Virus record (IMG/VR): IMGVR_UViG_3300044971_004534
Direction: 5' to 3' (one strand)
DNA length: 64,000 nucleotides
From: a virus
A program made the position numbers and the translations under genes. The notes beneath the pieces were generated by a model, which searched no databases, was not told where the DNA came from, and was given only the letters and a program-made list of their open reading frames with translations. Of the stretch, positions 20,133 through 43,020 are shown piece by piece; within the stretch, counting starts at the first letter, position 1; every line of letters begins with the position of its first letter.

Positions 20133-20166
20133 CTCTTTTTCCCCCTTCCCCGAAGGACTTGGGACA
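20133..20166 (+). promoter_or_regulatory. conserved intergenic cassette copy 3 (leaderless class)
   Basis: core 20133-20145; TTG +14..16; ATG 20166 at +21. Confidence 0.55.
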
Positions 20167-21416
20167 TGGCAAAGAAGAAGAACAACTCCACCGCAACCGC
20201 CGCTCCTGCTGCCGACAACGCTCAGGATGTCGGACTCACGCCTTCTGAACTCAACGAACTCCGTGAGCGCATGAAGGGCATCGTGTTCCGTATGTACCGC
20301 TTCTTTCCCTTTTGGGGACTGCTTGCGGAGAACTGCAAGGTGTCGATCAAGTCCGACAAGGATGTTCCGACCGCCTGTGTTGACCGATACGGCAACATCA
20401 GTTTCGGAGCAAAGTTCTTCAAGGACTTGACCGAAGATCAGGCGTTGTTCGTCCTCGCGCATGAGATCGGTCACGCTGCGTTCAGTCACATTGATCGCCG
20501 TCAGAGCCGTGATCCGCTGCTTTGGAATGTTGCGATTGACTACGCCATCAACCTCCTCCTGTCGGACAACTTCAACGATTCCAAGTATCTGCCGAAGGGT
20601 GTCCTGCTTGACAAGAAGTACGCGGGGATGTCCGCTGAGGAGATTTACGAAGATGTCATCCGCAACGCCAAGACCGTGAAGGTCTACACGCTTTCGGGCG
20701 ATGTTGACTACAGCGACAAGGGCGAGGATGGCGATGGCGATGGCGATGGCATCGTGATCCGTGATCGCCGTGCCGAAAAGAAGGGCAACGAGCAGGGTTG
20801 GGATCAGGCAATCGCCTTGAGCCATGCCCGTGCAAAGATGCAGGGCGATATGCCTGAGTCTCTTGATCGTGCCGTGTCGGAGAAGTTGGGCAGCAAGATT
20901 GATTGGCGCGAAGCACTCAAGCAGTACCTCCGCTTTGGCGTGACTCGCATCCTGCGGGATCACTACACCTTCATGCCCCCGAACCGCCGCTTTGTCCATC
21001 AGGGTCTTTACTTGCCGTCCATGTACGGCAACGATGCCCCGAAGATCGGCTTTGCCGTGGACACCTCCGGTTCGATTGGTGAGTCAGAGATGGCTCAGGC
21101 AATCGCTGAGATTGATGAGATTCGCCGTCAGTTCAACTGCCCTCTTTACCTTGTGGAGTGTGATGCGGAAGTCCATGACGGGCGTTGGATCAGTCCCGAT
21201 CAGTCCTGCCCAACGGCGTTCAAGGGCGGCGGCGGAACCGATTTCCGTCCCGTGTTTGACCACCTCAAGGAGCAGAAAGTCCCCGTGGACATTATGGTGT
21301 ACCTCACCGATGGCTACGGCGAGTTTGGAGATCAGCCCGAAGTCGATGTCCTTTGGGTCACGACCACGAATGTCAAGCCGCCTTATGGCGACCACATTCA
21401 AGTGGGTGTGGGCTAA
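20166..21416 (+). CDS. VWA-domain protein with N-terminal zincin-like domain (MoxR partner, DUF2201-like)
   Basis: HEIGHAAFSH (HExxH) and MIDAS DTSGSIG; immediately downstream of the MoxR ATPase. Confidence 0.85.
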   Translation: MAKKKNNSTATAAPAADNAQDVGLTPSELNELRERMKGIVFRMYRFFPFWGLLAENCKVSIKSDKDVPTACVDRYGNISFGAKFFKDLTEDQALFVLAHEIGHAAFSHIDRRQSRDPLLWNVAIDYAINLLLSDNFNDSKYLPKGVLLDKKYAGMSAEEIYEDVIRNAKTVKVYTLSGDVDYSDKGEDGDGDGDGIVIRDRRAEKKGNEQGWDQAIALSHARAKMQGDMPESLDRAVSEKLGSKIDWREALKQYLRFGVTRILRDHYTFMPPNRRFVHQGLYLPSMYGNDAPKIGFAVDTSGSIGESEMAQAIAEIDEIRRQFNCPLYLVECDAEVHDGRWISPDQSCPTAFKGGGGTDFRPVFDHLKEQKVPVDIMVYLTDGYGEFGDQPEVDVLWVTTTNVKPPYGDHIQVGVG

Positions 21417-21446
21417 TATGGGGGACAGGGGCGAAAGCCCCTCTCC

Positions 21447-21480
21447 CTCTTTTTCCCCCTCCGTGGGGGAAGTTGGAGAG
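21447..21480 (+). promoter_or_regulatory. conserved intergenic cassette copy 4
   Basis: core 21447-21459 after hairpin 21427-21442; TTG +14..16; leader with AAGGAG to ATG 21563. Confidence 0.55.
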
Positions 21481-21562
21481 TCAGCCGGATGTTCCGGTTG
21501 ACAGTAGCACTTGAGAGCCACAAACCAAGTCGCATGACTTGTTTAGGTGGCAAGGAGAAAAG

Positions 21563-22213
21563 ATGGCTAACACCATCAGCAACGCATCGGTCGTCGTCAG
21601 CAACGCTCAGGCTCACGCCCTGATCCGTACCTCCCTCGCTAAGAGCGGTTCGTGCAAGACGATGAAGGGTAACTCCACGGCTGACACCATGTTGGTGGAC
21701 AAGTCGCGTGGTGAGAAGTACGCCATTGACGCGACCGTTCGCATGACGGGAACGATCAGCGTGGAGCAGAACGGCACGATCAAGAAGCGTCTTGATCGGT
21801 TCAAGTTGTTCACTCAGGCTGTCATCAATCTGACTCGTCAGGGTGCGCCCATCAACAAGGCTCTCATCATCGGTGAGATGGATCGCCTGTGGACGCTTCA
21901 CAAGGACAACCGTGACCTCAAGCAGATCGACAGCGAGACTTTCGATTCTGTCCTTGGGGAACTCTTTGGACGGGATTTCTGCGACCGGATGTACGCTCCG
22001 GTTGACGAGTCCGCTCCGAAGGCGGGTGACTTCAGCGTGAGCGACCTCAGCATCGACATCCTCAACTCCATCGTTGGGGCTGTCGGGTCGGAGAATCCCG
22101 CTGTGTGGAACATCACTCCCACTCCGGTTGCAGCCGTCACTCATGCTGCGGGTGGACCGCAGAATGATGCGGATGCTAAGAACAGCAAGCCTGTTCGCAG
22201 GAAGCGGAAGTGA
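21563..22213 (+). CDS. hypothetical protein
   Basis: ATG 21563 after CAAGGAGAAAAG, frame of ORF-track 21539..22213. Confidence 0.6.
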   Translation: MANTISNASVVVSNAQAHALIRTSLAKSGSCKTMKGNSTADTMLVDKSRGEKYAIDATVRMTGTISVEQNGTIKKRLDRFKLFTQAVINLTRQGAPINKALIIGEMDRLWTLHKDNRDLKQIDSETFDSVLGELFGRDFCDRMYAPVDESAPKAGDFSVSDLSIDILNSIVGAVGSENPAVWNITPTPVAAVTHAAGGPQNDADAKNSKPVRRKRK

Positions 22214-22263
22214 CCAATAATCGGGCGGGGAGTGGGGGTAAAACCCCCTCCCCGTTCGATACG

Positions 22264-22297
22264 CTCGTTTTCCCCCTTCCCTCTTTAGGTTGGGGTA
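22264..22297 (+). promoter_or_regulatory. conserved intergenic cassette copy 5
   Basis: core CTCGTTTTCCCCC 22264-22276; TTG +14..16; A at +21. Confidence 0.5.
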
Positions 22298-22340
22298 TAA
22301 GAAAAATCAAGAATCTTCTTACATTTGTTACTAACATCAC

Positions 22341-22368
22341 TTGACACAAATAAGAAGCGTTCTATGAT
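22341..22368 (+). promoter_or_regulatory. sigma70-type promoter TTGACA-N16-TATGAT
   Basis: TTGACA 22341-22346, TATGAT 22363-22368, upstream of 22450. Confidence 0.45.
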
Positions 22369-22449
22369 TTGCTCATATTGATCCATCGCTGCCGAGGGTC
22401 AATCTGATTCATCCAATCGGCAGTTCTTACTAACAGGAGTTTCTTCAAA

Positions 22450-23121
22450 ATGAAGAACAGCAACACGGGCATGGTTCTTGCCCCGAACCCGGCTGACATC
22501 ATCAGCCGTCAGTTGAAGTTGGACCGCAACACTTTCCTTCAGGCTGTCAACCTCTACAACTCGCTGACGCAGTTGGATCAGTCAGCGACGGTTGCCGCCC
22601 CGAACGAAGGTGGCGAGGAGGACACGGGCAAGCGTGGTCCCGGTCGCCCGAAGGGGTCGAAGAACCGGAAGCCCGGTCGCCCGAAGGCGAAGCGTGGTCC
22701 CGGTCGCCCGAAGAAGAAGCGTGGTCCGGGTCGCCCCAAGGCGAAGAAGGGTCCGGGTCGCCCCGCTGCCAAGCGTGGTCCCGGTCGCCCGAAGGGGTCG
22801 GTTGCCAAGCGCAAGACGGTGAAGGGTGGCGCAACCGCCTCTCGCCGTGGTCGCAAGGCGAAGAACCCGAACGGCATGACCATGCGCGATGCGGTCACTA
22901 ACGCTCTCCGCAACGCCAATGGTCCGGTGAAGGCTCCTGCCATCGCTGAAACCCTCAAGGGTCAGGGCTTTACGAGCAAGTCGCTCAACACTCAGGTGGC
23001 TCAGGAGTTGAGCCGCATGGTGACTGATGGACTTGCCAGCCGCCCTGAGCGTGGTTCGTATGCTTGGTCGGGCAGCAACGCCCCGGCAGAGCAGACGGCT
23101 GAAGTCGCTCAGACCGCCTGA
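22450..23121 (+). CDS. AT-hook repeat DNA-binding protein with C-terminal H1/winged-helix-like domain
   Basis: Seven GRP cores: KRGPGRPKG, KPGRPKA, KRGPGRPKK, KRGPGRPKA, KKGPGRPAA, KRGPGRPKG...; nucleotide repeat GGTCCCGGTCGCCCGAAG. Confidence 0.8.
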   Translation: MKNSNTGMVLAPNPADIISRQLKLDRNTFLQAVNLYNSLTQLDQSATVAAPNEGGEEDTGKRGPGRPKGSKNRKPGRPKAKRGPGRPKKKRGPGRPKAKKGPGRPAAKRGPGRPKGSVAKRKTVKGGATASRRGRKAKNPNGMTMRDAVTNALRNANGPVKAPAIAETLKGQGFTSKSLNTQVAQELSRMVTDGLASRPERGSYAWSGSNAPAEQTAEVAQTA

Positions 23122-23140
23122 GTCTGATTGAAAAAGTTCC

Positions 23141-23184
23141 AACGGCGGGTCGCCCTAAAAAAGCGACTCGCCGTTGTGCTTTTG
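23141..23184 (+). terminator. rho-independent terminator
   Basis: AACGGCGGGTCGC / GCGACTCGCCGTT 13-bp stem (one mismatch) then TGCTTTTG. Confidence 0.7.
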
Positions 23185-23221
23185 TATCACTTGCGAGAAA
23201 TCTTGGATAGTACCCAATGAG

Positions 23222-23470
23222 ATGCCCGAACCTCGTATCAATCAGGCTACGCAAACCATTGGGAACGGAATCGCTTGGGACTCCATCAAGGGTCTTATCA
23301 CGCATTTTATTTCTAGTGACGGCAAGACCGTGTGTGGCAAAGATGTGAGTGGCGGCGCCTCTTACGGATGGTATCCAAGCAAGAAGGATGAAAAAACCAG
23401 GATTTGTCCTGACTGCGCTAAACGCAAAACTGTTCCCGTAGCTCAACTGGATAGAGCAGCCGCCTTCTAA
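23222..23470 (+). CDS. hypothetical Zn-ribbon-like protein (uncertain)
   Basis: ATG 23222 in frame of ORF-track 23174..23470; C...CPDC; last 39 nt overlap tRNA-Arg, which lowers confidence. Confidence 0.35.
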   Translation: MPEPRINQATQTIGNGIAWDSIKGLITHFISSDGKTVCGKDVSGGASYGWYPSKKDEKTRICPDCAKRKTVPVAQLDRAAAF

Positions 23471-23505
23471 GCGGCAGGTTACTGGTTCGAGCCCAGTCGG
23501 GAACG
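23432..23505 (+). tRNA. tRNA-Arg(UCU)
   Basis: Acceptor GTTCCCG/CGGGAAC, anticodon stem GCCGC/GCGGC, loop CTTCTAA, T-arm CTGGTTCGAGCCCAG. Confidence 0.9.
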
Positions 23506-23538
23506 CTTAGTCTCATAATAAAAGTGGACAGAATGGAC

Positions 23539-23567
23539 TTGACACTCCATTGAACCAACGCTATACT
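23539..23567 (+). promoter_or_regulatory. sigma70-type promoter TTGACA-N17-TATACT
   Basis: TTGACA 23539-23544, TATACT 23562-23567; AAAGGAG before ATG 23619. Confidence 0.6.
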
Positions 23568-23618
23568 ATGTATGTCTGAGTTTTATTCTTCATTTACCTT
23601 TTACAAAAGGAGTTCAAC

Positions 23619-23909
23619 ATGAGTCACATTTCTGTTCGCAGTTCGTCTATTCGTCTGACTGAAGAAAATGCAACACCTCGTCAGAGGCTTCATGGATGGG
23701 TGTTCCCTCCAAGTCCTGTCACGCAGGGAGTTCTTGTGGGCATGAACGATGCTCTTGCTGAGGAGATCATCGGCATGATCCGTGACTGCTGCTCTGATGA
23801 CAATGGCAACATGATTCTTGATGGATCAAATGCCGATCTGCTGACTTTTGCTAGCCGTCTTGAGCAGAACATTGCTCAGAAGGCGATGCGGAAAACAGAT
23901 CGTGAGTAA
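23619..23909 (+). CDS. hypothetical protein
   Basis: ORF track; SD AAAGGAG 7 nt upstream. Confidence 0.6.
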   Translation: MSHISVRSSSIRLTEENATPRQRLHGWVFPPSPVTQGVLVGMNDALAEEIIGMIRDCCSDDNGNMILDGSNADLLTFASRLEQNIAQKAMRKTDRE

Positions 23910-23947
23910 AGGACTTTTCCCAGTTCCATAGAAATATGGGCTGTGAA

Positions 23948-24302
23948 GGGGCTGAACTGGTTTCGATTGCTGAAGGACTATTCGATACTGCACGACGAGG
24001 CTGATGGGCAACTCGTAAAAAGCCGATCAAACAACAACCGCCAACGAATCGTTGATGGCTGTCGCTGCTTGATGCAGCAAAGTTCTTAGAAGTTGGACAC
24101 TTGCTTCTAAGAACTGTCTGAAGTGTCGATCAGCGTACTGCGAAGTTCCAACGCATAAGGCGCTGAAGTTAATATTATATGATTTGGAACTTTCAAAGGA
24201 CTCATGGTACGAGGACTCCTTTGATCGACGGACTCGTACCTAGCGTGGAGAAGGTGCGATAGGACTTTTGCCAACACAGGGGTTCGACTCCCCTCGGCTC
24301 CA
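23948..24302 (+). ncRNA. ssrA: tmRNA (SsrA), tag ADQTTTANESLMAVAA
   Basis: 5' GGGGCTGAACTGGTTTCGA; 3' T-arm GGGGTTCGACTCCCC plus acceptor CGGCTCC-A pairing with the 5' end incl. G3:U; tag ORF GCC 24022 to TGA 24072 after an A-rich tract; no encoded CCA. Confidence 0.8.
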
Positions 24303-24311
24303 TTCAGCAAG

Positions 24312-24345
24312 CCCTCGTTCAGAGAAATCTGGGCGAGGGATTTTC
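24312..24345 (+). terminator. rho-independent terminator after tmRNA
   Basis: CCCTCG ... CGAGGG stem followed by ATTTT. Confidence 0.5.
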
Positions 24346-24368
24346 TACTAAATACAGAAAGGGATTCA

Positions 24369-24611
24369 ATGGAAATGGTTTACGGGATCGGTATCGCTAT
24401 TTGCTCTGTGGCTTCCGCTTACTTTGGCTGGAAGTTCGGTTACGCTCAGGGAAACAAAGACGGACACAAAACCGGGTACGATCATGGGGTGACTGCTGCC
24501 ATTCACGCTAACAAAAACGCTATTTTCCGTCAGAGTAAGCCAAGGCTTATGTATGGCGCAAAAAAGATCGTGAATGAAAAAAGCAAGCAAGAAGAAGTCT
24601 GGATTGGTTGA
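24369..24611 (+). CDS. small membrane protein
   Basis: ORF track; N-terminal helix VYGIGIAICSVASAYFGW. Confidence 0.55.
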   Translation: MEMVYGIGIAICSVASAYFGWKFGYAQGNKDGHKTGYDHGVTAAIHANKNAIFRQSKPRLMYGAKKIVNEKSKQEEVWIG

Positions 24612-24651
24612 GATTCCGTATCACTTCTCTATCTGTTGGATATTACTAGGT

Positions 24652-24725
24652 GGGAGATTAGCTCAGCGGTCAAGAGCAGGCGACTCATAATCGCTTGGTC
24701 GTGGGTTCGAACCCCACATCTCCCA
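24652..24725 (+). tRNA. tRNA-Met(CAU) elongator or tRNA-Ile2(CAU, lysidine type)
   Basis: Acceptor GGGAGAT/ATCTCCC, anticodon loop CTCATAA, T-arm GTGGGTTCGAACCCCAC; lacks initiator GGG/CCC anticodon stem. Confidence 0.85.
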
Positions 24726-24799
24726 TTATGCCTAGACGGATAAAGCTTTTACCGTGGCGTATGCCTAGTCACTTTTACGAATATCAAGGAGAAGAAAAA

Positions 24800-25132
24800 A
24801 TGAACGAAAGAAACAAGACCTCTGTGATCCTTTTCAGCATCGGTGCAGGAATGCTGTTTGGTTCTGCTGCCACCATGAGTGCGCCGCAGTATTCCATGTA
24901 TTTTCTGTTTGGTTCGCAGTTCTTCATCATTGCTGGTGCAATCGCCAGTTCCGCTCACTTCACTCGTCGTTTTGATGAGATGAATGTTGAAACTGACAAC
25001 AATCGGCGTGATATGTACAATCACGTTAGTTCCGTTGAAGACAGCATCCAGAGAGATGTTGATGGAGTGCGCCGTGAACTGGCTCAGGTTGAGAGTCGCA
25101 TCTGCACGAACAAACAGAAAGACGCTCGCTGA
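24800..25132 (+). CDS. membrane protein
   Basis: ATG 24800 after CAAGGAGAAG; two helices (VILFSIGAGMLFGSAA, FLFGSQFFIIAGAIA); ORF-track 24695 start would overlap the tRNA. Confidence 0.6.
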   Translation: MNERNKTSVILFSIGAGMLFGSAATMSAPQYSMYFLFGSQFFIIAGAIASSAHFTRRFDEMNVETDNNRRDMYNHVSSVEDSIQRDVDGVRRELAQVESRICTNKQKDAR

Positions 25133-25449
25133 TGTCGCGCCGCCCAAGTAACTCCAAAGGTGGTCTTGACCGCCTTGCGGTTTTGAACGGAGATAGTGCA
25201 GGACAGTATGTTCGCGTTTGCGAAGATGCCGTCAGCACCGTTGAGTTCAAGCCAGGTGTCTACGCTCGCTCAGTCAACGACAACGGATGGGCTTGCCCCC
25301 GTGGTCTTGAGGAAGTGAAGACGCAGGGACTCATCAAGAGCGCTGCGTGGGCGATTCGGGCAATCAAGAGGCGCGCTGAGTCTGGCGATGCTGAAGCGCA
25401 GATCATCATTCAGAACTTGAACGAGATTATCGGACAAGCTTCTGCGTAA
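25132..25449 (+). CDS. hypothetical protein
   Basis: ORF track; TGATG overlap with previous gene. Confidence 0.6.
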   Translation: MSRRPSNSKGGLDRLAVLNGDSAGQYVRVCEDAVSTVEFKPGVYARSVNDNGWACPRGLEEVKTQGLIKSAAWAIRAIKRRAESGDAEAQIIIQNLNEIIGQASA

Positions 25450-25472
25450 GAGCCAAGGAGAGAGGGATGGGG

Positions 25473-25509
25473 TAGCCCCGATTGTCGGAGATCGGGGCTA
25501 TCTTTTTTT
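25473..25509 (+). terminator. rho-independent terminator
   Basis: TAGCCCCGAT / ATCGGGGCTA 10-bp stem followed by TCTTTTTTT. Confidence 0.8.
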
Positions 25510-25573
25510 AATCTACGATGGTCAACTTTCTTGGGAAAAATGGAGAGATTTCGTACCAAGAAGAATGTAGACT

Positions 25574-25582
25574 TGTATACTA
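25574..25582 (+). promoter_or_regulatory. possible extended -10 (TGTATACTA), leaderless
   Basis: -10-like element ends 6-7 nt before ATG 25589; weak -35. Confidence 0.3.
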
Positions 25583-25588
25583 ATAGAC

Positions 25589-25855
25589 ATGGAGCGCAAT
25601 CCTCTATACAGTAAGAGTCGAAAGACAAGCCGTATCATCAATCAGGTTGATAATACGCCGTCTTTGCCTCAGCCAATCCTCAGTCCGATGGTGCGAGTTG
25701 GACTGTACAACTTGGTAACTGGAAGGAATGCGAGTCCTGTTGCGGGTAGCGGTGCTTCATTGAACCAGTATTATGATTCTTTGGACGCTCAGGGTATTGC
25801 GTATCCTGAGTTCGGACCCAATCTTGTGAAACTCAATAAGCCCCCGGAAGGGTGA
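25589..25855 (+). CDS. hypothetical protein
   Basis: ORF track; followed by a strong hairpin. Confidence 0.45.
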   Translation: MERNPLYSKSRKTSRIINQVDNTPSLPQPILSPMVRVGLYNLVTGRNASPVAGSGASLNQYYDSLDAQGIAYPEFGPNLVKLNKPPEG

Positions 25856-25889
25856 GGGGTTGAGGGTTCGCCCTCCCCCTCACCTTTTT
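25851..25889 (+). terminator. rho-independent terminator fused to cassette copy 6
   Basis: GGTGAGGGG / CCCCTCACC 9-bp stem followed by TTTTT. Confidence 0.7.
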
Positions 25890-25923
25890 CTCTTTTTCCC
25901 CCACGATGGGGAAGGTTGTGGCA
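25890..25923 (+). promoter_or_regulatory. conserved intergenic cassette copy 6
   Basis: core 25890-25902; TTG +14..16; A 25923 at +21; 13-nt leader with AAGGA to ATG 25936. Confidence 0.55.
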
Positions 25924-25935
25924 GCAAGGACGATC

Positions 25936-26853
25936 ATGCCCATCCGACACCTCGGTTATGCCTGTCAGAATATGACCCTCGGGGAGACTAAGCCAGTCTC
26001 CAAGCGTGTCTTTACGGACAGAACGCTTCGGATGGACGGGTTTAGTCTGCGGCGAGTAAATGAACTTGCCCTGTCGAACTCCCGTGATCTGCTCAAGATC
26101 ATGTGGTGGAATGTTGAAAATAAAATCAACTTCTTCCGCATTGGTTCAGGGATGTTTCCGTTCATGGATCATCCCGAACTGAAGTACGGTCTTGATGACC
26201 TCGCTACTGCGTTCACGATCAAGGGCGTGTTTCAGAATGTCGGCAACCTTGCCCGTGAGCATGGTATCCGGCTGTCAATGCACCCCGGTCCATACACCTG
26301 TCTTGCATCCCCTGATGAGGCAGTTGTCGCTAAGTCCTTGCTGTGCGTGGAGATGCACTCAATGGTTGGCGATCTTCTTGGAATGGATGACTTCCCAATC
26401 AACATCCACATTGGTGGTGTGTATGACGGCAAGGAAGGGTGTGCAGAGCGGTTTGTCCACAACTTCTCCCGACTTTCTCCACGCGCTCAATCAAGGCTGA
26501 CGCTTGAAAACGATGACAAGGAGGGAATGTGGACGATTCGTGACCTTCTTCCGGTGCATGAAAAGACAGGTATTCCACTTGTTCTTGACATTCATCACCA
26601 CTCGCTCAACACAGGTGGAGATGAACTGACAGCCGTAGCAGACATCGCTCTTTCCACTTGGAACGGAAAAACTCCAAAAGTTCATTATAGTGAACCTAAA
26701 GAGGGTTGCCGTCCCCAAGCACATTCCGACTACATCGTGAATGAGATTCCCGAACTTTGTCCAGTCAGACAATACGATGTGATGATTGAGGCAAAGGCAA
26801 AGGAACTCGCTCTCCTCAAATACAGAAACCTCTTTTTCCCCCTCTCTCGGTGA
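25936..26853 (+). CDS. uvdE: UV damage endonuclease UvdE
   Basis: RHLGYACQN..., FFRIGSGMFPF, RLSMHPGPY, HIGGVY, RLTLENDD, LVLDIHHH, VMIEAKAKE are the UvdE TIM-barrel signature; start set by cassette geometry and SD. Confidence 0.9.
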   Translation: MPIRHLGYACQNMTLGETKPVSKRVFTDRTLRMDGFSLRRVNELALSNSRDLLKIMWWNVENKINFFRIGSGMFPFMDHPELKYGLDDLATAFTIKGVFQNVGNLAREHGIRLSMHPGPYTCLASPDEAVVAKSLLCVEMHSMVGDLLGMDDFPINIHIGGVYDGKEGCAERFVHNFSRLSPRAQSRLTLENDDKEGMWTIRDLLPVHEKTGIPLVLDIHHHSLNTGGDELTAVADIALSTWNGKTPKVHYSEPKEGCRPQAHSDYIVNEIPELCPVRQYDVMIEAKAKELALLKYRNLFFPLSR

Positions 26854-28096: not shown

Positions 28097-28113
28097 ACCG
28101 ATAAATCGTTGAA

Positions 28114-28197: not shown

Positions 28198-28200
28198 TTC

Positions 28201-35927: not shown

Positions 35928-35934
35928 CCGGGAT

Positions 35935-36465: not shown

Positions 36466-36507
36466 GGAGCCTTTATTCCAAGTCGATAAAGACGAGCAGG
36501 CTGAAGT

Positions 36508-36541
36508 CTCTTTTTCCCCCTCCAACGGTACACCTGGTAAC
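36508..36541 (+). promoter_or_regulatory. conserved intergenic cassette copy 19
   Basis: core 36508-36520; CTG at +14..16 (variant); leader with GAAAGG to ATG 36589. Confidence 0.45.
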
Positions 36542-36588
36542 ACCAACGAGTCCGGTTTTTTCAACCACAACGCAGAAAGGCAAGAACA

Positions 36589-36981: not shown

Positions 36982-36989
36982 TCAGTCGC

Positions 36990-37023
36990 CTCGTTTTCCC
37001 CCTTAGATGGGGAGGTTGCAGCA
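36990..37023 (+). promoter_or_regulatory. conserved intergenic cassette copy 20 (leaderless class)
   Basis: core 36990-37002; TTG +14..16; ATG 37023 at +21. Confidence 0.55.
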
Positions 37024-37508
37024 TGGCTACACGAAGCATGATCGGAATGACCCTGACCAACGGCGAGATCAAGGCGATCTATTGCCATTGGGACGGGTAC
37101 ATCAGCAACAACGGCATGATTCTTTACAACTGCTACAACACGGTTGAGCAAGTTGAAGCCCTCATGTCTCTTGGCGACCTGTCAAGCCTCCGCGAAAAGT
37201 TGGGCGAGAAGCATGACATGACCGATCCTCTCAATAAGGTCGGAAGCGACAATGGATGGTGTACGGCTTTCGGGCGTGACCGTGGCGACGAGGGTTGTGA
37301 AGCGCGAATCCTCAAGGACAACCGGAAACTCAAGTCACTTGCCCAAAGTGTTTGGGCTGAATGGATTTACCTGTACGACTGCCACAACAAGGAGTGGCTT
37401 GTAAAGCCCACATCAGAAGGTCGTTACAGGAAGTTGTACGATGTTCTTCTTGAGGATGGGTTGATTGATCCCATTGATGAACTTCTAAATACGGCAAAGC
37501 AGGACTAA
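37023..37508 (+). CDS. hypothetical protein
   Basis: ORF track; SMIGMTLTNGEIKAIYCHWDGY N-terminus recalls a common phage family I cannot name. Confidence 0.65.
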   Translation: MATRSMIGMTLTNGEIKAIYCHWDGYISNNGMILYNCYNTVEQVEALMSLGDLSSLREKLGEKHDMTDPLNKVGSDNGWCTAFGRDRGDEGCEARILKDNRKLKSLAQSVWAEWIYLYDCHNKEWLVKPTSEGRYRKLYDVLLEDGLIDPIDELLNTAKQD

Positions 37509-37516
37509 GCAACTCC

Positions 37517-37550
37517 CTCGTTTTCCCCCTCCCCTGCCGGGTTTGGGGCA
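37517..37550 (+). promoter_or_regulatory. conserved intergenic cassette copy 21
   Basis: core 37517-37529; TTG +14..16; A 37550 at +21; leader with AAAGGA to ATG 37581. Confidence 0.55.
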
Positions 37551-37580
37551 GCACAGGTCATCAACACAAAGGAACTCACT

Positions 37581-37961
37581 ATGGGCGCATGGGGATACAA
37601 GGCATTCGACAACGATCACGCTCTTGATTGGGCTGGCATCGTGATCGACGACGCTTTTTGGGGCAAGGTCAAGAAGGGTCTTGAAGGCAATAATCACGAT
37701 GAGATTCGTGCTGCTGCCGGAATCACCATCGCGGTTCTCTCCGGTTGCCGTGGAGTTACTCCCTACGGCTTCAACATCCTGAAGATTGCATACGATGCGC
37801 TGAAGCGTGTCTTGAATGACAGCGAGTGGCTTGATTCGTGGGACAACCCCGAAGCGGTCAGAAAAGAAATCAAGCAGCAGATGAATGATCTAGCAAAGAT
37901 CAACCCTGCTACGACTCTTTCCGAAGTTCTTGCCGAATGTGACACGGAACTGTCACAGTAA
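37581..37961 (+). CDS. DUF4259-like protein
   Basis: MGAWGYKAFDNDHALDW N-terminus matches my memory of DUF4259. Confidence 0.65.
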   Translation: MGAWGYKAFDNDHALDWAGIVIDDAFWGKVKKGLEGNNHDEIRAAAGITIAVLSGCRGVTPYGFNILKIAYDALKRVLNDSEWLDSWDNPEAVRKEIKQQMNDLAKINPATTLSEVLAECDTELSQ

Positions 37962-37975
37962 ACGAAAGGAAACAC

Positions 37976-38332
37976 ATGAAGCCCAATGTCCCTGAGCGTC
38001 TTGCCATCGCTACCGTCCTGATCGGATGCGGGAGCCTCCGTGCTGCCCTCATCAAGATGAACGAGAAGGATCGCAAGTGGTGCAACTCTATCCGTACTCA
38101 CTTTGACAACATTCAGCAGTCCCTCACGGGTTCAGACATCTCCATGCGCGCTGCCGTCAATGCGTGGGACGAAGTGAAGCAGATTCTTGACGATGGTTTC
38201 AACGGAACCCCCTACAGCGCGGACGAGATTGACGATGTGATGTACCTGTTCGGTGCCGTGGACGAGACTTTCTACGCCATGCTTGACAAGGCTGGCGTTC
38301 CGTTTGAACCCGAAATCAATATGCAGGACTAA
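37976..38332 (+). CDS. hypothetical protein
   Basis: ORF track; SD GAAAGGAAACAC. Confidence 0.6.
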   Translation: MKPNVPERLAIATVLIGCGSLRAALIKMNEKDRKWCNSIRTHFDNIQQSLTGSDISMRAAVNAWDEVKQILDDGFNGTPYSADEIDDVMYLFGAVDETFYAMLDKAGVPFEPEINMQD

Positions 38333-38334
38333 CC

Positions 38335-38499
38335 ATGAACGACCCCTATTCCAACTTCCCGCTTCAGCAGAAGCAGATCACCTACTGCATGGCTTGCCCC
38401 GAAGGTAGGTATGTCGCCCATTCGTGGATCAGTCTTGGATGGGCAATCCTGCGGCACCGCATTTGGCACCTGTTCAAGCATGGCAGGTGGATGGACTGA
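38335..38499 (+). CDS. small hypothetical protein (54 aa)
   Basis: Hand-translated MNDPYSNFPLQQKQITYCMACPEGRYVAHSW...; fills the gap before cassette copy 22. Confidence 0.4.
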   Translation: MNDPYSNFPLQQKQITYCMACPEGRYVAHSWISLGWAILRHRIWHLFKHGRWMD

Positions 38500-38531
38500 C
38501 TTTTTCCCCCTGCCCGAAAGGACTTGAGGCA
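38498..38531 (+). promoter_or_regulatory. conserved intergenic cassette copy 22 (leaderless class)
   Basis: core GACTTTTTCCCCC 38498-38510; TTG +14..16; ATG 38531 at +21. Confidence 0.55.
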
Positions 38532-39118
38532 TGGCACACCGCACCCGAAGATTCGTCATTGATTGCGAAACTAACGCCATCAACTTTGATGCTTGGCACA
38601 AGGGTGACTTCAGTTCCCTGAAGTCCGTTCATTGTCTTGTCGCCATTGACGCAGACACGAACAAGGTGTATCGGTTCCGTGAGGAGCGAGTCCGTGACGG
38701 CATCATTTGGATCTTCAACCAAGCGAACGAAGTCATCGCTCATTACGCGAAGTTCGATGTGCAGGTGATTGAGTCCTACATTGGGGCAAAGTTCCCCAAA
38801 GAAGTTGTCATCACCTGTACGCAGAAGATGGCAAAGGAACTGTTCCCCAACGGGTACCGTGAGGATCGGGTTCCCGAAGGTCAGCGTGGTCGGCACAAGT
38901 TGGAGACTTGGGGATTCCGTTTGGGCATCCACAAGGGTTTGTTCAACAAGAAGACCAATCCGTTCTCGCAGTATTCCGATGAAATGATGGAGTATTGCGT
39001 CCGTGACTGCACCGTGACTCTTGCGCTGCACCGATTCTTGTCGCGCCGCAAGCGTTGGGGCAAGTTGGCTTCAATCTTTGACTACTTCTCTCCCATTGAG
39101 GAGCCGCAAGTGGCGTAA
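38531..39118 (+). CDS. DnaQ/DEDD-type 3'-5' exonuclease (Pol A exonuclease-domain-like)
   Basis: ExoI VIDCETN, ExoII HYAKFDVQVI, ExoIII EYCVRD in canonical order. Confidence 0.75.
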   Translation: MAHRTRRFVIDCETNAINFDAWHKGDFSSLKSVHCLVAIDADTNKVYRFREERVRDGIIWIFNQANEVIAHYAKFDVQVIESYIGAKFPKEVVITCTQKMAKELFPNGYREDRVPEGQRGRHKLETWGFRLGIHKGLFNKKTNPFSQYSDEMMEYCVRDCTVTLALHRFLSRRKRWGKLASIFDYFSPIEEPQVA

Positions 39119-39131
39119 AGAAGGCAACTGC

Positions 39132-39165
39132 CTCGTTTTCCCCCACCGCCCACCGCTTTGAGGCA
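39132..39165 (+). promoter_or_regulatory. conserved intergenic cassette copy 23
   Basis: core 39132-39144; TTG +14..16; A 39165 at +21; 13-nt leader GAAAGGAAACTC to ATG 39178. Confidence 0.55.
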
Positions 39166-39177
39166 GAAAGGAAACTC

Positions 39178-39723
39178 ATGCCAAACTGGTGTCTGAACAA
39201 GGTTCGTATCAAGGCAAAGCCCGCAACTCTCGCAGCGATCAAGGAAACGCTGAAGGGCAAGGAGTATGTTCGCCCCTTCAACTTTGAGAAGCGAGAGGAT
39301 GGCGAACTCACCTGTGTGGACAGCATCTTCTGCTTCCACAGCATCATTCCGCAGCCTGACGAGATTCTCGACCCGGAAGATCCGCGCCGCAAGGCAAAGA
39401 TGTCATCTGCGGAGATTCTTGAGCGTCTGTCCAAGAAGGAAGAGAAGGGTATGCCAGAGTGGTGGAACTGGCGTGTCAACAACTGGGGCACGAAGTGGTC
39501 GGTGAACGGAGAGGACATCGGATTTGAGGAGAAGAAGGGTTCAATGATCTACTCCTTTGATACCGCATGGGCACCTCCTGAACCCGTGATCCAAAAACTG
39601 TCGGAGATGTTCCCCGATGCGAACATCCTGCTCTCGTTTTACGAGCCGGGGTGTATCGGTCGCGGAAGCGTCACCTACAAGGATGGCGAAATCATCAAGA
39701 CAACCGGAGTGGGCGTTGACTGA
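39178..39723 (+). CDS. DUF1281 / Api92-like ferredoxin-fold protein
   Basis: MPNWCLNKVRI start and NNWGTKW motif match my memory of DUF1281. Confidence 0.6.
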   Translation: MPNWCLNKVRIKAKPATLAAIKETLKGKEYVRPFNFEKREDGELTCVDSIFCFHSIIPQPDEILDPEDPRRKAKMSSAEILERLSKKEEKGMPEWWNWRVNNWGTKWSVNGEDIGFEEKKGSMIYSFDTAWAPPEPVIQKLSEMFPDANILLSFYEPGCIGRGSVTYKDGEIIKTTGVGVD

Positions 39724-39761
39724 CGACGGAATGGGGTGGCGGGATGAAATACTCCCGCCGC

Positions 39762-39795
39762 CTCGTTTTCCCCCTGCCCGAAAGGACTTGGAGCA
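39762..39795 (+). promoter_or_regulatory. conserved intergenic cassette copy 24 (leaderless class)
   Basis: core 39762-39774 after hairpin 39738-39759; TTG +14..16; ATG 39795 at +21. Confidence 0.55.
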
Positions 39796-40229
39796 TGAGC
39801 AACTCAACCTACGAGCGCGAAACGGACATCATCCTCAACGGTATCTCCCTGAAGTCCGCACCGGGCTGGAAGATCGACCTGACCCTGAAGGTCAAGTACG
39901 AGTGGGTGCGTGGCGGCATCGGAGCCTACGAGTTCTGGGGAGCGCGTGGTGTGGACATCGGTGGCGGATGGGAGTGGGTGGAGTACGGCGTTGAAGGCAT
40001 CAAGGCTTCCAACGACAGCGGAACCGTACTGACCGCTACCAACAGCCAACAGTTCAACCCGGATTTCGTCAGCGGTGTTCTCTCTGACTACGGGATCAAC
40101 CTGTACGAATGGCTGAACGAGATCAACGACAGCGAGATCATCCAAGACATGATTATCGACAAGTGTCCTGATTGGACTGACCCCCGCTATGACGGGATGC
40201 CCGATGACAACTCACCTGATGGAGACTGA
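39795..40229 (+). CDS. hypothetical protein
   Basis: ATG 39795 in frame of ORF-track 39744..40229. Confidence 0.6.
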   Translation: MSNSTYERETDIILNGISLKSAPGWKIDLTLKVKYEWVRGGIGAYEFWGARGVDIGGGWEWVEYGVEGIKASNDSGTVLTATNSQQFNPDFVSGVLSDYGINLYEWLNEINDSEIIQDMIIDKCPDWTDPRYDGMPDDNSPDGD

Positions 40230-40230
40230 T

Positions 40231-40431
40231 ATGGAACCCAAGTACCCAAACATCACCGTGCAACTGGTTGGACAGGACGGCAACGCTTTCGCCATTCTTG
40301 GTCGCGTTCAGAGGGAAATGAAGCGTGGCGGCGTTCCTCGCAACGAGATCGACAACTTCATGTCAGAGGCAACGAAGGGCAACTACGATGAACTTCTTGT
40401 CACCGTTATGAAGTGGGTGGAAGTGGAGTAA
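40231..40431 (+). CDS. small hypothetical protein (66 aa)
   Basis: ATG 40231 after GGAG, abuts previous stop; frame of ORF-track 40189..40431. Confidence 0.6.
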   Translation: MEPKYPNITVQLVGQDGNAFAILGRVQREMKRGGVPRNEIDNFMSEATKGNYDELLVTVMKWVEVE

Positions 40432-40440
40432 GGCAACTGC

Positions 40441-40474
40441 CTCGTTTTCCCCCACCGAAGGAGGTGTTGCATCG
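40441..40474 (+). promoter_or_regulatory. conserved intergenic cassette copy 25 (leaderless class, GTG)
   Basis: core 40441-40453; TTG +14..16; GTG 40474 at +21. Confidence 0.5.
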
Positions 40475-40872
40475 TGGACGCAAAGCACCCGATCAGAAAC
40501 TTGGTATACGAACGCATGACAACTCTCGCATCGTGCACCGTAGGAACGATTGATGTCCTCAACGAGATGCTCCCATCTCTTGAGAATGACGAGATCGACC
40601 CAAACGCGATTGCGTTTCAGACGGATGAGTTCCGTGCGATGATGAAGGAGACCTACAGCGGTCAGCACATTGCTATGGTTCTGTATCCGAACGGACAGAC
40701 CATGCACCGCAGGTTCTACTGTTGGTATGTCAGCACCGAACACAACAAGAGCGGAAATGCGTGGATGATCCTCACCCACCGACATCCCGACTTGTTCACG
40801 AAGGGCAAGATCATGCGACCTGATGACTTCACAAAGAGCATGGCACTGCTTCAGACGATGGAAACCAAGTGA
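40474..40872 (+). CDS. hypothetical protein
   Basis: ORF track (GTG start). Confidence 0.55.
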   Translation: MDAKHPIRNLVYERMTTLASCTVGTIDVLNEMLPSLENDEIDPNAIAFQTDEFRAMMKETYSGQHIAMVLYPNGQTMHRRFYCWYVSTEHNKSGNAWMILTHRHPDLFTKGKIMRPDDFTKSMALLQTMETK

Positions 40873-40881
40873 GGCACCGCA

Positions 40882-41187
40882 ATGAAGATCAAGAAGGCAA
40901 TCGCTGAACTCAAGCGTTTGGAGAAGGAGTTTGGAGGAGATCAGCACATCTGCTGCTTCTATGTGTGTCCAAACTTTGTAATCGACTCTGCAAGTCATCA
41001 AGACAAGTCCATTACCGCAGAAATCGCGGGAAAGATTCTGAAGGAAGTGATGGCAGAGGAGGAGCGCGAAGGACATATGTTCCGCGTGTTCTCCGATCTT
41101 GTCGATGCCTACATCGCTGATTACGACCCTGACCCCCTTGACGATCTCGTAGACGCAGCAAAGTCCAAGAAGAAAGGCAAGAAATGA
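40882..41187 (+). CDS. hypothetical protein
   Basis: ORF track. Confidence 0.6.
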   Translation: MKIKKAIAELKRLEKEFGGDQHICCFYVCPNFVIDSASHQDKSITAEIAGKILKEVMAEEEREGHMFRVFSDLVDAYIADYDPDPLDDLVDAAKSKKKGKK

Positions 41188-41447
41188 CGCATCCTGCAAA
41201 CAAGCAAACCGCTGATTTCCTCCTCAAGCAGCAGCGGCGTGTGTTCACCATCGACCTAACTGCCCTTGATGTCGCTGACCATCTTGGTTGCAGCGAGGAG
41301 CGCGCAGAGCGTGTCATTGAAGATATGTCTCACAACTGCGATGCTCTGTTTGACTACATCTGGAACCTTGTTGACGAGTGTGCAACGGGGATTCCTGAAG
41401 ATCCAATCGCTGACCTGATGGATGCGGCGAAGAAGGACGAGAAGTAA
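41184..41447 (+). CDS. hypothetical protein
   Basis: ORF track; ATGA overlap; C-terminus DPIADLMDAAKK resembles DPLDDLVDAAKSKK of the previous product. Confidence 0.6.
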   Translation: MTHPANKQTADFLLKQQRRVFTIDLTALDVADHLGCSEERAERVIEDMSHNCDALFDYIWNLVDECATGIPEDPIADLMDAAKKDEK

Positions 41448-41455
41448 GCAGCCGC

Positions 41456-41489
41456 CTCGTTTTCCCCCTTCCCCGGTGGGGTTGCGGTG
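41456..41489 (+). promoter_or_regulatory. conserved intergenic cassette copy 26
   Basis: core 41456-41468; TTG +14..16; leader with GAAAGGA to ATG 41532. Confidence 0.55.
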
Positions 41490-41531
41490 TTGCCCGCCGT
41501 GGGCAGCAGACGCAACAAGAAAGGACGAACG

Positions 41532-41960
41532 ATGACGATGACGAAGATCAGCCTCGATGTGAAGTCGAAGGGTGCTGCGGAGATCGTGAAGGAACTCCTC
41601 AACCTCCCCGAAGGCTTCACCTCCGGTCGCGTGGAAGTGGCGTTCAACTTCACCGCCGACAAGGGTGCGGACGAGACTTACACCGCCGTGCAGGAACTCT
41701 GCCCGTGGACGCTCGTGGCGGTTCTCATGTCCAAGATCAACGGGGTTACGCAGGATGCCGTGATCGACTGCATCCCCACGATCATGGAGATGAACGACAA
41801 GCAGCGCAAGGTGCTGCGCGAGTCGCTGAAGGAGTCCACCACGAAGCGGCTTGAGGAGATGGGCGCATTCGTGCAGAAGGTGCGCTCCGGCAAGACGCGC
41901 ATCGAAGTGGCGGGCGATGCCACCGTGACGGGGGATAACCTCCCGGTCGCAACCGCCTAA
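41532..41960 (+). CDS. hypothetical protein
   Basis: ATG 41532 in frame of ORF-track 41487..41960. Confidence 0.6.
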   Translation: MTMTKISLDVKSKGAAEIVKELLNLPEGFTSGRVEVAFNFTADKGADETYTAVQELCPWTLVAVLMSKINGVTQDAVIDCIPTIMEMNDKQRKVLRESLKESTTKRLEEMGAFVQKVRSGKTRIEVAGDATVTGDNLPVATA

Positions 41961-42001
41961 CAGACCCCCGGAACGGAGGGGAGGCAAGTAGTGCGCCTCC
42001 C

Positions 42002-42035
42002 CTCTTTTTCCCCCTCAACCGGAGTATTTGCGGCA
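42002..42035 (+). promoter_or_regulatory. conserved intergenic cassette copy 27 (leaderless class)
   Basis: core 42002-42014 overlapping hairpin 41976-42004; TTG +14..16; ATG 42035 at +21. Confidence 0.55.
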
Positions 42036-42148
42036 TGGACACAATCATCCTCATGCTCATCGGATCGAACCTTGCCTTGATTGGCTACCTGTGCCACAAG
42101 GACATGAAGGGCAAGCGCAGCAAGTCGCGCAGGAAGGCAACGGCGTGA
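42035..42148 (+). CDS. small membrane protein (37 aa)
   Basis: Hand-translated MDTIILMLIGSNLALIGYLCHKDMKGKRSKSRRKATA; start fixed by cassette geometry; GTGA overlap with next gene. Confidence 0.4.
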   Translation: MDTIILMLIGSNLALIGYLCHKDMKGKRSKSRRKATA

Positions 42149-42456
42149 AGTCGAACCCTTACATTCAGATGCTTGAACCTCTCATCGGTGGAACGATCAC
42201 GAAGATCATCTACGATGAAAGCGACCCGCATGGTGATCCGTTCTGCGGCTTCATCGTGACGCGACCCGAAGCCGTGTATCAGGTGATTGCCTTGCGTGAT
42301 CCCGAAGGCAACGGAGCCGGGTTCGTGGAAGTGACGAAGGTAAGAACTTGGCTGAAGGACACTTGCGACAAGTGTGGCGGACTGATCAACGGGATTGACA
42401 AGTTCCCCGCAGTTGGTACAATGGGCGTACCGATCTGCACAGATTGCGACAACTAA
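42145..42456 (+). CDS. hypothetical protein
   Basis: GTG 42145 after AGGAAGG, frame of ORF-track 42028..42456. Confidence 0.5.
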   Translation: MKSNPYIQMLEPLIGGTITKIIYDESDPHGDPFCGFIVTRPEAVYQVIALRDPEGNGAGFVEVTKVRTWLKDTCDKCGGLINGIDKFPAVGTMGVPICTDCDN

Positions 42457-42502
42457 TCCTTTCTGCGAAGGGAGTGCGTTCCGAAGTGAATGCGCTCCCT
42501 TC

Positions 42503-42536
42503 CTCTTTTTCCCCCTGTTCCCCGCCTCTTGGGTTG
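42503..42536 (+). promoter_or_regulatory. conserved intergenic cassette copy 28
   Basis: core 42503-42515 after hairpin 42467-42502; TTG +14..16; leader with AAAGGAG to ATG 42554. Confidence 0.55.
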
Positions 42537-42553
42537 TCGAAAGGAGACAACGA

Positions 42554-42805
42554 ATGGGTTACAAGCAGATTGGTCGCCTCATCGTTTCGCAAGATGAGAG
42601 CGAGTGGATTGACATCAAGCGTCCGTGTGTCGTGACGGGTGAACCGTACAGCGTCAGCGTTCGCCGCACCGATTGGGATGCGTGGAAGGGCGGCAAGTTG
42701 GCGCAACTTGCGTTCCCTTACCTCTCCCGCGAGGATCGTGAGTTCATCATCAGCGGAACCAGCCCGCAAGGTTGGGAGGAGTTGTTTGGAGGTAACGATG
42801 AGTGA
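42554..42805 (+). CDS. hypothetical protein
   Basis: ATG 42554 in frame of ORF-track 42395..42805. Confidence 0.6.
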   Translation: MGYKQIGRLIVSQDESEWIDIKRPCVVTGEPYSVSVRRTDWDAWKGGKLAQLAFPYLSREDREFIISGTSPQGWEELFGGNDE

Positions 42806-42938
42806 TCCATCGCTAGACCCCTCTGACGAGGACAACTACGACGGCGGCGAGTTCTTCTACGAGGAGCCGTCTGACGAGCCAATGTGGGAGCCAAACGAGT
42901 TCTACACCGATCCCATGTACGGGTCGGAAACTTTCTAA
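42798..42938 (+). CDS. small acidic protein (46 aa)
   Basis: ATG 42798, 8-nt overlap; MSDPSLDPSDEDNYDGGEFFYEEPSDEP...; frame of ORF-track 42639..42938. Confidence 0.4.
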   Translation: MSDPSLDPSDEDNYDGGEFFYEEPSDEPMWEPNEFYTDPMYGSETF

Positions 42939-42986
42939 TCTTCTTGCGTCCTGCGGGGCGGGGTACTTCCTTTCCCCCGCCCCGCT

Positions 42987-43020
42987 ATCTTTTTCCCCCT
43001 TTGCCGACAAACTTCTAGCA
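42987..43020 (+). promoter_or_regulatory. conserved intergenic cassette copy 29 (leaderless class)
   Basis: core ATCTTTTTCCCCC 42987-42999 after hairpin 42953-42985; TTC at +14..16 (variant); ATG 43020 at +21. Confidence 0.5.

Follow-up and report, generated by a model that had tools for sequence, protein, structure and literature searches.

A 64-kb stretch of DNA (64,000 nucleotides; the window, analysed at its full length) from IMG/VR record IMGVR_UViG_3300044971_004534 belongs to an uncultured phage, its proteins matching phage families, and contains a long array of putative promoter elements on one strand. The genes of this promoter-rich region are small and mostly assigned to families of unknown function (DUF932, DUF6915, DUF3846, DUF1281_C, DUF5983, DUF6011, DUF4116). 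A search of both strands with the regular expression C[GT]TTTTCCCC returned 39 copies of the element on the + strand, at 16510–46736, and one chance match on the − strand. The weight matrix built from the 39 copies scores these copies at 27–48 bits, and the rest of the 64 kb, on either strand, at no more than 8 bits.

16507..46767, + strand: span of the promoter set, 39 copies of CCTCKTTTTCCCCCT-N12-TTGnGGC-R(+1), about one per 0.8 kb, ahead of small accessory genes, mostly DUFs

The element is 35 bp long and consists of two parts: an upstream block, CCTCKTTTTCCCCCT, at −34 to −20, and a proximal block, TTGnGGC, at −7 to −1, separated by a 12-nucleotide (nt) spacer of free sequence. The distance between the blocks is constant in all 39 copies. 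Within the proximal block T is found at −7 in 38 copies and at −6 in all 39, and the bases at −20 to −15 are mostly pyrimidines. A pyrimidine occupies −1 in 34 of the 39 copies and a purine +1 in 37, and the information content drops sharply past +1; since pyrimidine/purine is the usual initiating pair and conservation stops at this very point, the 5′ end of the transcript is predicted at the +1 purine. About ten copies (including 36431, 39134, 40443, 41458, 43837, 44534, 45813, and 46152) share an extended upstream word, TA(A/G)GCARCYGCCT. A 4-bp palindrome (GGCA..TGCC) is part of the word, and several of its occurrences take in the stop codon of the preceding gene, so that just 40–50 nt separate stop from start.

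The original prediction held that in 18 of the 39 copies exactly 20 nt lie between the core and the start codon, which places the start codon at +1. All the starts that it listed are present, 17 ATG codons and the GTG at 40474. When ATG positions are counted by offset from the core, 17 fall at offset 20 and none at 21–28, with further peaks at 33, 38, and 51, equivalent to 13-, 18-, and 31-nt leaders; chance alone would put about 0.8 ATG at offset 20, and the probability of finding at least 17 among 39 is 9e-19. All 18 starts open reading frames (ORFs), of 37–416 amino acids (aa), and 15 of them are the first in-frame start past the upstream stop. The preference for AUG expected of leaderless genes is thus seen, and discriminates weakly because the other genes of the window also mostly begin with ATG. 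The 18 copies, all on the + strand, are as follows:

20132..20168, + strand: copy with ATG at +1 (20166); ORF to 21416, 416 aa, DUF2201 peptidase-like; strong hairpin at 20096–20132 just upstream; orthologues keep the ATG at +1
26829..26865, + strand: copy with ATG at +1 (26863); ORF to 27975, 370 aa; orthologues in the related contigs L225 and L226 also without leader
28285..28321, + strand: copy with ATG at +1 (28319); ORF to 29029, 236 aa; directly after two tRNA-Leu genes
29034..29070, + strand: copy with ATG at +1 (29068); ORF to 30270, 400 aa, DUF4116
30273..30309, + strand: copy with ATG at +1 (30307); ORF to 30726, 139 aa, DUF6915; N-terminus MSHPYYHAKS
31106..31142, + strand: copy with ATG at +1 (31140); ORF to 31850, 236 aa
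31854..31890, + strand: copy with ATG at +1 (31888); ORF to 32217, 109 aa
32808..32844, + strand: copy with ATG at +1 (32842); ORF to 33090, 82 aa
33525..33561, + strand: copy with ATG at +1 (33559); ORF to 34086, 175 aa; spacer GGGGGAGG 7 nt before the ATG
34022..34058, + strand: copy with ATG at +1 (34056); ORF to 34766, 236 aa
35961..35997, + strand: copy with ATG at +1 (35995); ORF to 36465, 156 aa; terminator-like hairpin at 35935–35958 just upstream
36428..36464, + strand: copy with ATG at +1 (36462); ORF of 58 aa overlapping the next copy; doubtful gene
36989..37025, + strand: copy with ATG at +1 (37023); ORF to 37508, 161 aa; spacer GGGGAGG; orthologue in the metagenome fragment L118 has ATG at +1 and another spacer
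38497..38533, + strand: copy with ATG at +1 (38531); ORF to 39118, 195 aa; spacer AAAGGA 8 nt before the ATG
39761..39797, + strand: copy with ATG at +1 (39795); ORF to 40229, 144 aa; gene callers used ATG 39744 inside a strong hairpin
40440..40476, + strand: copy with GTG at +1 (40474); ORF to 40872, 132 aa; spacer AAGGAGG 9 nt before the GTG
42001..42037, + strand: copy with ATG at +1 (42035); ORF of 37 aa; gene callers prefer GTG 42091 in another frame; doubtful gene
42986..43022, + strand: copy with ATG at +1 (43020); ORF to 43244, 74 aa; spacer without a Shine-Dalgarno-like sequence (duplex energy +0.1)

Public annotation pipelines disagree on the starts of several genes adjoining the element (35995/36019, 37023/37038, 40474/40516, and 39795/39744, where the ATG preferred by the callers lies inside a hairpin of −25 kcal/mol). 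Such disagreement is expected if start models based on the Shine-Dalgarno (SD) sequence fail on leaderless genes.

The other 21 copies are followed by a leader. An A had been claimed at +1 in most of them; it is found in 13, and six of the others have a G. Leader lengths over the 39 copies are 0 (18 copies), 13, 13, 13, 14, 18 (four copies), 19, 31 (four copies), 33, 43, 48, 49, 57, 59, 83, and 153 nt, and none is of 1–12 nt, a gap to be expected where genes either do without a leader or must accommodate an SD sequence in it. The leaders of 13–14 nt consist of an A, GAAAGGA or AAGGA, and 5–6 nt before the ATG, so that the SD sequence begins at +2; the coordinates originally given for three SD-led examples (25923–25936, 39165–39178, and 43868–43881) are correct. 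The proposed clustering of the leadered class at 43–47 kb is true of only part of it: 10 copies lie there, but 11 are scattered across 16.5–42.5 kb. The spacers of the cluster are C-rich, and its leaders, of 13–33 nt, all contain GAAAGGA.

25889..25938, + strand: leadered copy with the 13-nt leader AGCAAGGACGATC; ATG 25936, UvdE-like protein of 305 aa
39131..39180, + strand: leadered copy with the 13-nt leader AGAAAGGAAACTC; ATG 39178, SD from +2
43834..43883, + strand: leadered copy with the identical 13-nt leader AGAAAGGAAACTC; ATG 43881
43247..46800, + strand: cluster of 10 leadered copies, core starts at 43250, 43837, 44253, 44534, 44998, 45280, 45583, 45813, 46152, and 46736

Leaders of at least 31 nt tend to open with a compact predicted hairpin. 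It starts at +1 to +5 in 9 of 12 such leaders, compared with 8.5% at random positions (P = 4e-8), and in 6 of 9 when paralogues are counted once (P = 2.5e-5). Stem-loops at the 5′ end are a known device for stabilising mRNA. Another kind of hairpin stands ahead of the element: in 12 of the 39 copies a structure of −22 kcal/mol or stronger ends 0–9 nt before the T-run of the core, forming a terminator/promoter module. Because in these 12 copies the U-tract of the GC-rich hairpin is the T-run of the core itself, many of the genes are probably separate transcription units.

21480..21502, + strand: predicted 5′-end hairpin, −17 kcal/mol, from exactly +1 of copy 21449; at the corresponding place the L226 orthologue carries one of other sequence
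41489..41507, + strand: predicted 5′-end hairpin, −12.7 kcal/mol, from +1 of copy 41458
44568..44580, + strand: hairpin GCCCCAAAGGGGC from +4 of the predicted transcript; paralogous copies at 45845–45857, 46186–46198, and 46770–46782
42467..42502, + strand: terminator-like GC-rich hairpin, with the T-run of the promoter core serving as its T tail; one of the 12 modules
44968..44995, + strand: terminator-like hairpin directly abutting promoter copy 44998

Relatives of the phage were found through homologues of the DUF2201 protein, whose identity to the marker in the window is given below in brackets. The closest contigs, L224 and L225 (86%), use the same promoter word as the window. Comparison of 10 promoter pairs between the window and L225 gave no indels and identities of 88% at −34 to −20, 46% at −19 to −8, and 76% at −7 to −1. 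Within the five pairs that have a leader, spacer identity is 43%, compared with 96% over the non-coding leader from +1 to +45. A neutral spacer of fixed length beside a strongly constrained leader suggests that promoter DNA gives way to functional RNA at +1. Gene order in L225 and L226 largely follows that of the window, and the presence or absence of a leader agrees for every one of the 10 promoter orthologues in L225 and for 10 in L226.

In the other relatives the promoter word changes. L226 (75%) lacks TTTTCCCC and has instead 10 copies of GCAGAAAATCCCCCCCGCATCGGAGATGCTAGAGT, six of them followed immediately by ATG, with states matching those of the orthologues in the window. L235 (79%) has AGAATCCCCCC-N13-TTAGAGC-ATG, and L234 (73%) has GAATCC-N16-GCTAGGGC followed by a 12-nt leader, AAGGAGCAAACC. 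Among the more distant contigs, L227 (53%) shows CCGGCGCGCA-N19-ATG in 7 of 15 copies, and L232 (50%) shows GAATnCTCCCGG-N13-ATG in eight publicly annotated genes, or 12 with the looser pattern CCCGG-N13-ATG. In L233 (39%; GC content 38%) about a dozen genes carry AAAATAATAATT-N9-GGTTATAGAAC-ATG, alongside leadered copies with GGAGG. The DUF6915 gene illustrates the pattern well: its N-terminus, MSHP(F/Y)YHAKS, is kept in five lineages, and a different word abuts the ATG in each. In its leadered orthologues (L233, L234) 12 nt, starting with A-GGGAG or AAGGAG, are inserted exactly at +1, the L233 leader being AGGGAGACAACG. As the words differ across relatives and the placement of the ATG is mostly kept, the architecture is older than any single promoter word.

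The ends of two Logan contigs, L234 (1–41 and 1281–1314) and L235 (1–33 and 1279–1338), lie inside promoter repeats and supplied the two corresponding variants. The idea that such short contigs are transcripts with revealing 5′ ends was rejected, as they are assembly fragments broken at promoter repeats. A motif scan of metagenome contigs yielded, among the matches listed, one useful fragment, L118, of 1.1 kb, the rest being chance matches.

Taken together, the pyrimidine/purine pair at −1/+1, the gap in leader lengths, the SD sequence at +2, the 5′ hairpins, the jump in conservation at +1, and the placement of the ATG in relatives argue for a 5′ end at +1, and the genes behind the 18 copies are probably translated from leaderless mRNAs that begin with that purine. 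The proposal that this position is the transcription start, giving leaderless messages for about half of the genes and SD-led ones for the rest, thus agrees with all usable sequence tests; the supporting claim that the 18 genes lack SD sequences was wrong, as detailed below. On this proposal a phage-specific promoter would direct initiation at the purine directly after the proximal block. In 18 copies that purine would be the A of ATG or the G of GTG, so that the mRNA would begin with the start codon and be translated without a leader. In the other 21 a leader of at least 13 nt would be made, the shortest with GAAAGGA at +2, while the longer ones would open with a protective stem-loop and have the SD sequence further on. 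The patch of purines present in the spacer of many leaderless copies may serve translation of read-through transcripts from upstream promoters, a conjecture prompted by the fact that a strong terminator-like hairpin precedes just 12 of the 39 copies.

Several observations weigh against this proposal. The proximal block, at −7 to −5, is nearer to +1 than the −10 element of bacteria would be. Doubt attaches to three of the 18 ORFs or starts (36462, whose ORF of just 58 aa runs into the next promoter copy, 42035, and 39795), leaving 15–16 solid copies, and in the distant L227 other copies are offset by ±1 or have, in a few cases, leaders of 3–9 nt. The 5′ structure of the presumed leaderless mRNAs gave a mixed result: the minimum free energy is weaker across 40 nt (P = 0.001) and 60 nt (P = 0.013) and no different across 25 nt, and the first 6 nt are not more accessible. 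No polymerase or sigma gene is found in the 64-kb window or in the flanks that were fetched, from a genome of at least 280 kb. The remaining difficulties concern the spacer. The original prediction saw no SD sequence at normal distance before any of the 18 starts, yet GGAGG precedes 33559, 37023, and 40474 and AAAGGA precedes 38531 and 39795, so that five or six copies have such a sequence 7–9 nt before the start. The spacers of the leaderless class average −7.0 kcal/mol compared with −4.4 in shuffled sequences, a value that none of 300 shuffles reached, and are overall more SD-like than those of the leadered class (P = 0.004). A G at −14, which could be an alternative start, is present in 28 of the 39 copies.

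These last points would be explained if transcription began upstream of the purine patch, for example at the G at −14 or just after the C-run, and produced a fixed leader of 14–20 nt with AGGA or GGAGG as a weak SD sequence; the ATG would then follow TTGnGGC only because the block is obligatory and SD spacing forbids moving the ATG further. It fits this alternative that copies without the patch (the C-rich spacers at 43–47 kb and the L234 orthologue) always have their own SD sequence downstream, and that GAGG or GGAG is found about 8 nt before the ATG in L227 and L232 as well. It is nevertheless unlikely. The spacer is near-neutral (43–46% identity), in contrast to the leader past +1, and the patch shows no conservation of sequence. 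The same patch is present in the leadered copies located before 43 kb, where no ATG follows it (P = 0.44 for the comparison with the leaderless class). An SD-like sequence is missing from leaderless-class genes such as 43020 (+0.1), 30307 (−3.5), and all those of L233, where the leaderless spacers, at −1.9 kcal/mol, equal their shuffles and the leadered genes carry GGAGG. Genes of the same phage that are clearly SD-led have far stronger signals (about −10 kcal/mol; AAGGAGG in 1–5 kb). Moreover, the pyrimidines at −20 to −15 are poor initiating nucleotides, the invariant TT would become RNA positions +8/+9 without an obvious function, and the hairpins would no longer stand at the 5′ end.

A different alternative keeps the start at +1 and assigns it to the host RNA polymerase, with an alternative or an unusual housekeeping sigma factor of the host and no phage factor. 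The finding of no polymerase or sigma gene in the 64 kb or the fetched flanks speaks for it, two blocks with a rigid spacer resemble promoters of the extracytoplasmic function (ECF) type, and if these genes are the earliest ones only host or virion-borne enzymes would be at hand. It is rather improbable, given that the word differs already at marker identities of 73–86% and completely at 39–53% with the geometry kept, as expected of a co-evolving phage factor, and given that neither TANNNT nor an enrichment of −35/−10 sites is found. Since closely related phages differ in the word but not in the geometry, the phage itself is the most likely source of the specificity factor, either its own RNA polymerase or a sigma-like factor. 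It could also be supposed that the element is a processing site, at which read-through transcripts are cleaved to give 5′ ends at or near the ATG, or a recombination junction of mobile cassettes. Strong hairpins fused to 12 of the 39 copies, the extended word with the previous stop codon in about ten, and the mosaic of small accessory genes in the region are in keeping with this, but a fixed-length spacer of free sequence is typical of promoter recognition by protein and not of an RNase site, the first copy (16510) stands at a divergent junction with no + strand transcript upstream that could be processed, and terminator-like hairpins upstream imply that transcription must restart. Leaderless RNAs with a 5′-monophosphate would be compatible with the rest at the price of an extra unsupported step, and this explanation as a whole is highly improbable.

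Two further readings of the element were rejected: an archaeal TATA-like one, based on the T-run centred at −27.5, because the phage has a full-length bacterial transfer-messenger RNA (tmRNA), and a sigma-54 one, based on TTGC, because a GG element 10–11 nt upstream is lacking and the spacing to +1 does not fit. The search for a phage polymerase also covered the ORFs at 1–10 kb, among which Pfam revealed no transcription proteins, and two overlapping giant ORFs, 57305–60004 (899 aa) and 59958–63086 (1042 aa), with repeats at 59.1–59.4 and 61.8–62.0 kb. The latter were dropped as candidate polymerase subunits (57305–63086), being paralogues of each other with no similarity in Pfam, PHROG, or PDB beyond coiled-coil noise.

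Among known systems, leaderless genes of Deinococcus-Thermus and Actinobacteria are recognised by a promoter element at a fixed distance from the ORF (PMC12340547, PMC3160421, PMC4633059). The phage resembles them in the short fixed distance between element and start, in an absent or very short 5′ untranslated region (UTR), in the large share of genes involved, and in the starts mis-assigned by gene callers, its own 5′ ends being predicted ones. It differs in that there the element is the housekeeping −10 box TANNNT read with the host sigma-A, and here it is a 35-bp two-part phage word confined to one block of the genome. TANNNT ending 6–7 nt before the start was not found in the 39 copies, with A at −11 in 4 and T at −12 in 10; only the T at −7 fits. 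Nor are sigma-70-like sites enriched in the region (14 vs. 11.5 ± 3.0; 5 vs. 6.1 ± 2.3).

Leaderless messages are not new to phages. In the Thermus phages phiYS40 and P23-45 the host polymerase reportedly makes middle and late transcripts that are largely leaderless (Sevostyanova 2007 and Berdygulova 2011 are said to describe this). As in the window, many transcription start sites (mapped there, predicted here) would lie on or next to the start codon with SD-led genes alongside; those phages are cultured, and their genes are middle or late ones with an extended −10 element and host polymerase, unlike the genes described here, which look accessory or early. The cI mRNA of lambda made from PRM, said to have been treated by Shean and Gottesman in 1992, is reportedly the classic leaderless phage message. 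It likewise starts with the A of AUG, as predicted here, and is also made as an SD-led form from PRE, paralleling the dual mode proposed for read-through; unlike the present case, it concerns a single gene with a host sigma-70 promoter.

Like the promoters read by the phage-encoded RNA polymerases of T7-like phages, phiKZ, and AR9, the array comprises dozens of almost identical copies, all on a single strand, and its consensus varies from one related phage to another. The T7-like promoter, however, is one contiguous block of about 23 bp, from −17 to +6, in contrast to the two blocks, 12-nt spacer, and lack of conservation after +1 seen here. For phiKZ no leaderless transcript is reported, and the mapped 5′ UTRs are long (PMC8244752), and those mapped in AR9 are of 26–491 nt (PMC5312081). 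The early promoters of these two jumbo phages, which have multisubunit polymerases of their own, are AT-rich and have long UTRs, whereas the present element is two-part, reaches to −34, and is predicted to give no UTR in half of its copies. Nor is it of the Bacteroidetes type, in which only the TTG at −7 to −5 is alike: TA four bases upstream is absent, the upstream block is TTTTCCCCC and not TTTG, and the phage uses clear SD sequences. The Bacteroidetes-type promoter consists of −33 TTTG and −7 TAnnTTTG. Modules of stem-loop and promoter repeated between small variable accessory ORFs, as in 12 of the 39 copies, also recall the promoter-early stem-loop (PeSL) cassettes of T4-type phages, which lie between small accessory genes and were reportedly proposed to be recombination junctions (Arbiol 2010 is said to be the source); PeSL promoters, unlike those of the window, are sigma-70 early promoters with normal leaders. 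Searches of the literature returned no description of the motif, of such a design, or of leaderless early genes in jumbo phages.

As regards the phage itself, public metagenome contigs of 83, 113, and 280 kb carry genes identical to those of the window, and it is therefore large and probably a jumbo phage. A megablast search of 24 kb of the window against GenBank phages matched tRNAs only, which suggests that it has no cultured relative. The best tblastn match of the DUF2201 protein is 36% identical (Thermus phage phiFa, Bacillus phage G, N4-like phages) and uninformative on lineage; an exact 14-mer scan of IMG/VR gave isolated chance matches only, and a search of GTDB genomes with the UvdE protein gave only matches of 33–37% in unrelated taxa, which did not pin down the host. 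The GC content is 50–60% in the promoter-rich block (16000–48000) and falls to 32–37% past about 54 kb (54000–64000). As independent public contigs show the same GC-rich/AT-rich junction, the window is not chimeric, nor is the junction an assembly artefact.

The window has eight tRNA genes (positions listed: 11527, 18894, 23432, 24651, 28114, 28201, and 30783) and a full-length one-piece tmRNA at 23948–24305 (Rfam, 85.9 bits; tag ANESLMAVAA). The tRNA/tmRNA block at 22.3–25.9 kb contains no copy of the phage promoter and two 11/12 sigma-70-like sites (22341–22368 and 23539–23567), for which reason it is possibly transcribed by the host polymerase. The promoter-rich block looks like an accessory or host-takeover region. 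ClpS is encoded by the phage (18604–18882) and by relatives (L232, 18163–18453), and AcrVA2-like genes are present in the same block of relatives (L227, 6312–7379; L232, 10991–12004); these genes fit a role of the block in host takeover or anti-defence.

Elsewhere in the window, paralogous families of small genes at 760–5200 have a stereotyped strong ribosome site and a GTG start (AAGGAGGAAAnCAA-GTG), an indication that the phage employs strong SD sequences in other regions. Three tandem repeats of about 48 nt (CCCTCATT..GTAGCAAAAGGGGTTTATTAGAAATATACCC) at 10437–10576, upstream of gene 10734, could be tandem promoters, an origin, or a binding array. Just past the last promoter copy, tandem 32-nt repeats (..GACAGCCGGTATGGAAG) at 47130–47257 and three occurrences of AGGGGGATACCTTAGC at 47339, 47432, and 48226 may mark a regulatory or boundary region.

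Discussions of leaderless translation in bacteria mostly present it as a trait of particular host phyla or of individual phage genes. That leaderless expression can be tied to a promoter was already known; a lineage-specific phage promoter as its carrier appears to be new. Whether the whole of the wider picture drawn here holds is an even call. In that picture a widespread clade of uncultured large phages, with contigs of up to 280 kb and well over a hundred assemblies, would possess rigid two-part promoters of a hitherto undescribed family, recognised by a polymerase or specificity factor that the phages encode and that evolves fast. With the transcription start on the A of AUG, leaderless mRNAs would be the source of much of the accessory protein repertoire, which is probably early or anti-defence in function, minimal SD leaders of 13 nt being the sole alternative, in a coupling of promoter and start codon that would be independent of the host. 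It is also a warning that start prediction based on SD sequences fails systematically in such regions, where public callers mis-call or disagree on several starts. A new promoter family with a sharply predictable transcription start would be useful for annotating uncultured phages, and the polymerase or sigma factor could be sought through its co-variation with the promoter word across relatives. The region would likewise provide a natural matched set of leaderless and SD-led genes under one promoter for the study of both modes of initiation. For the phage, a single 35-bp element would set both the start of the RNA and the start of the protein for about half of some 40 transcription units.

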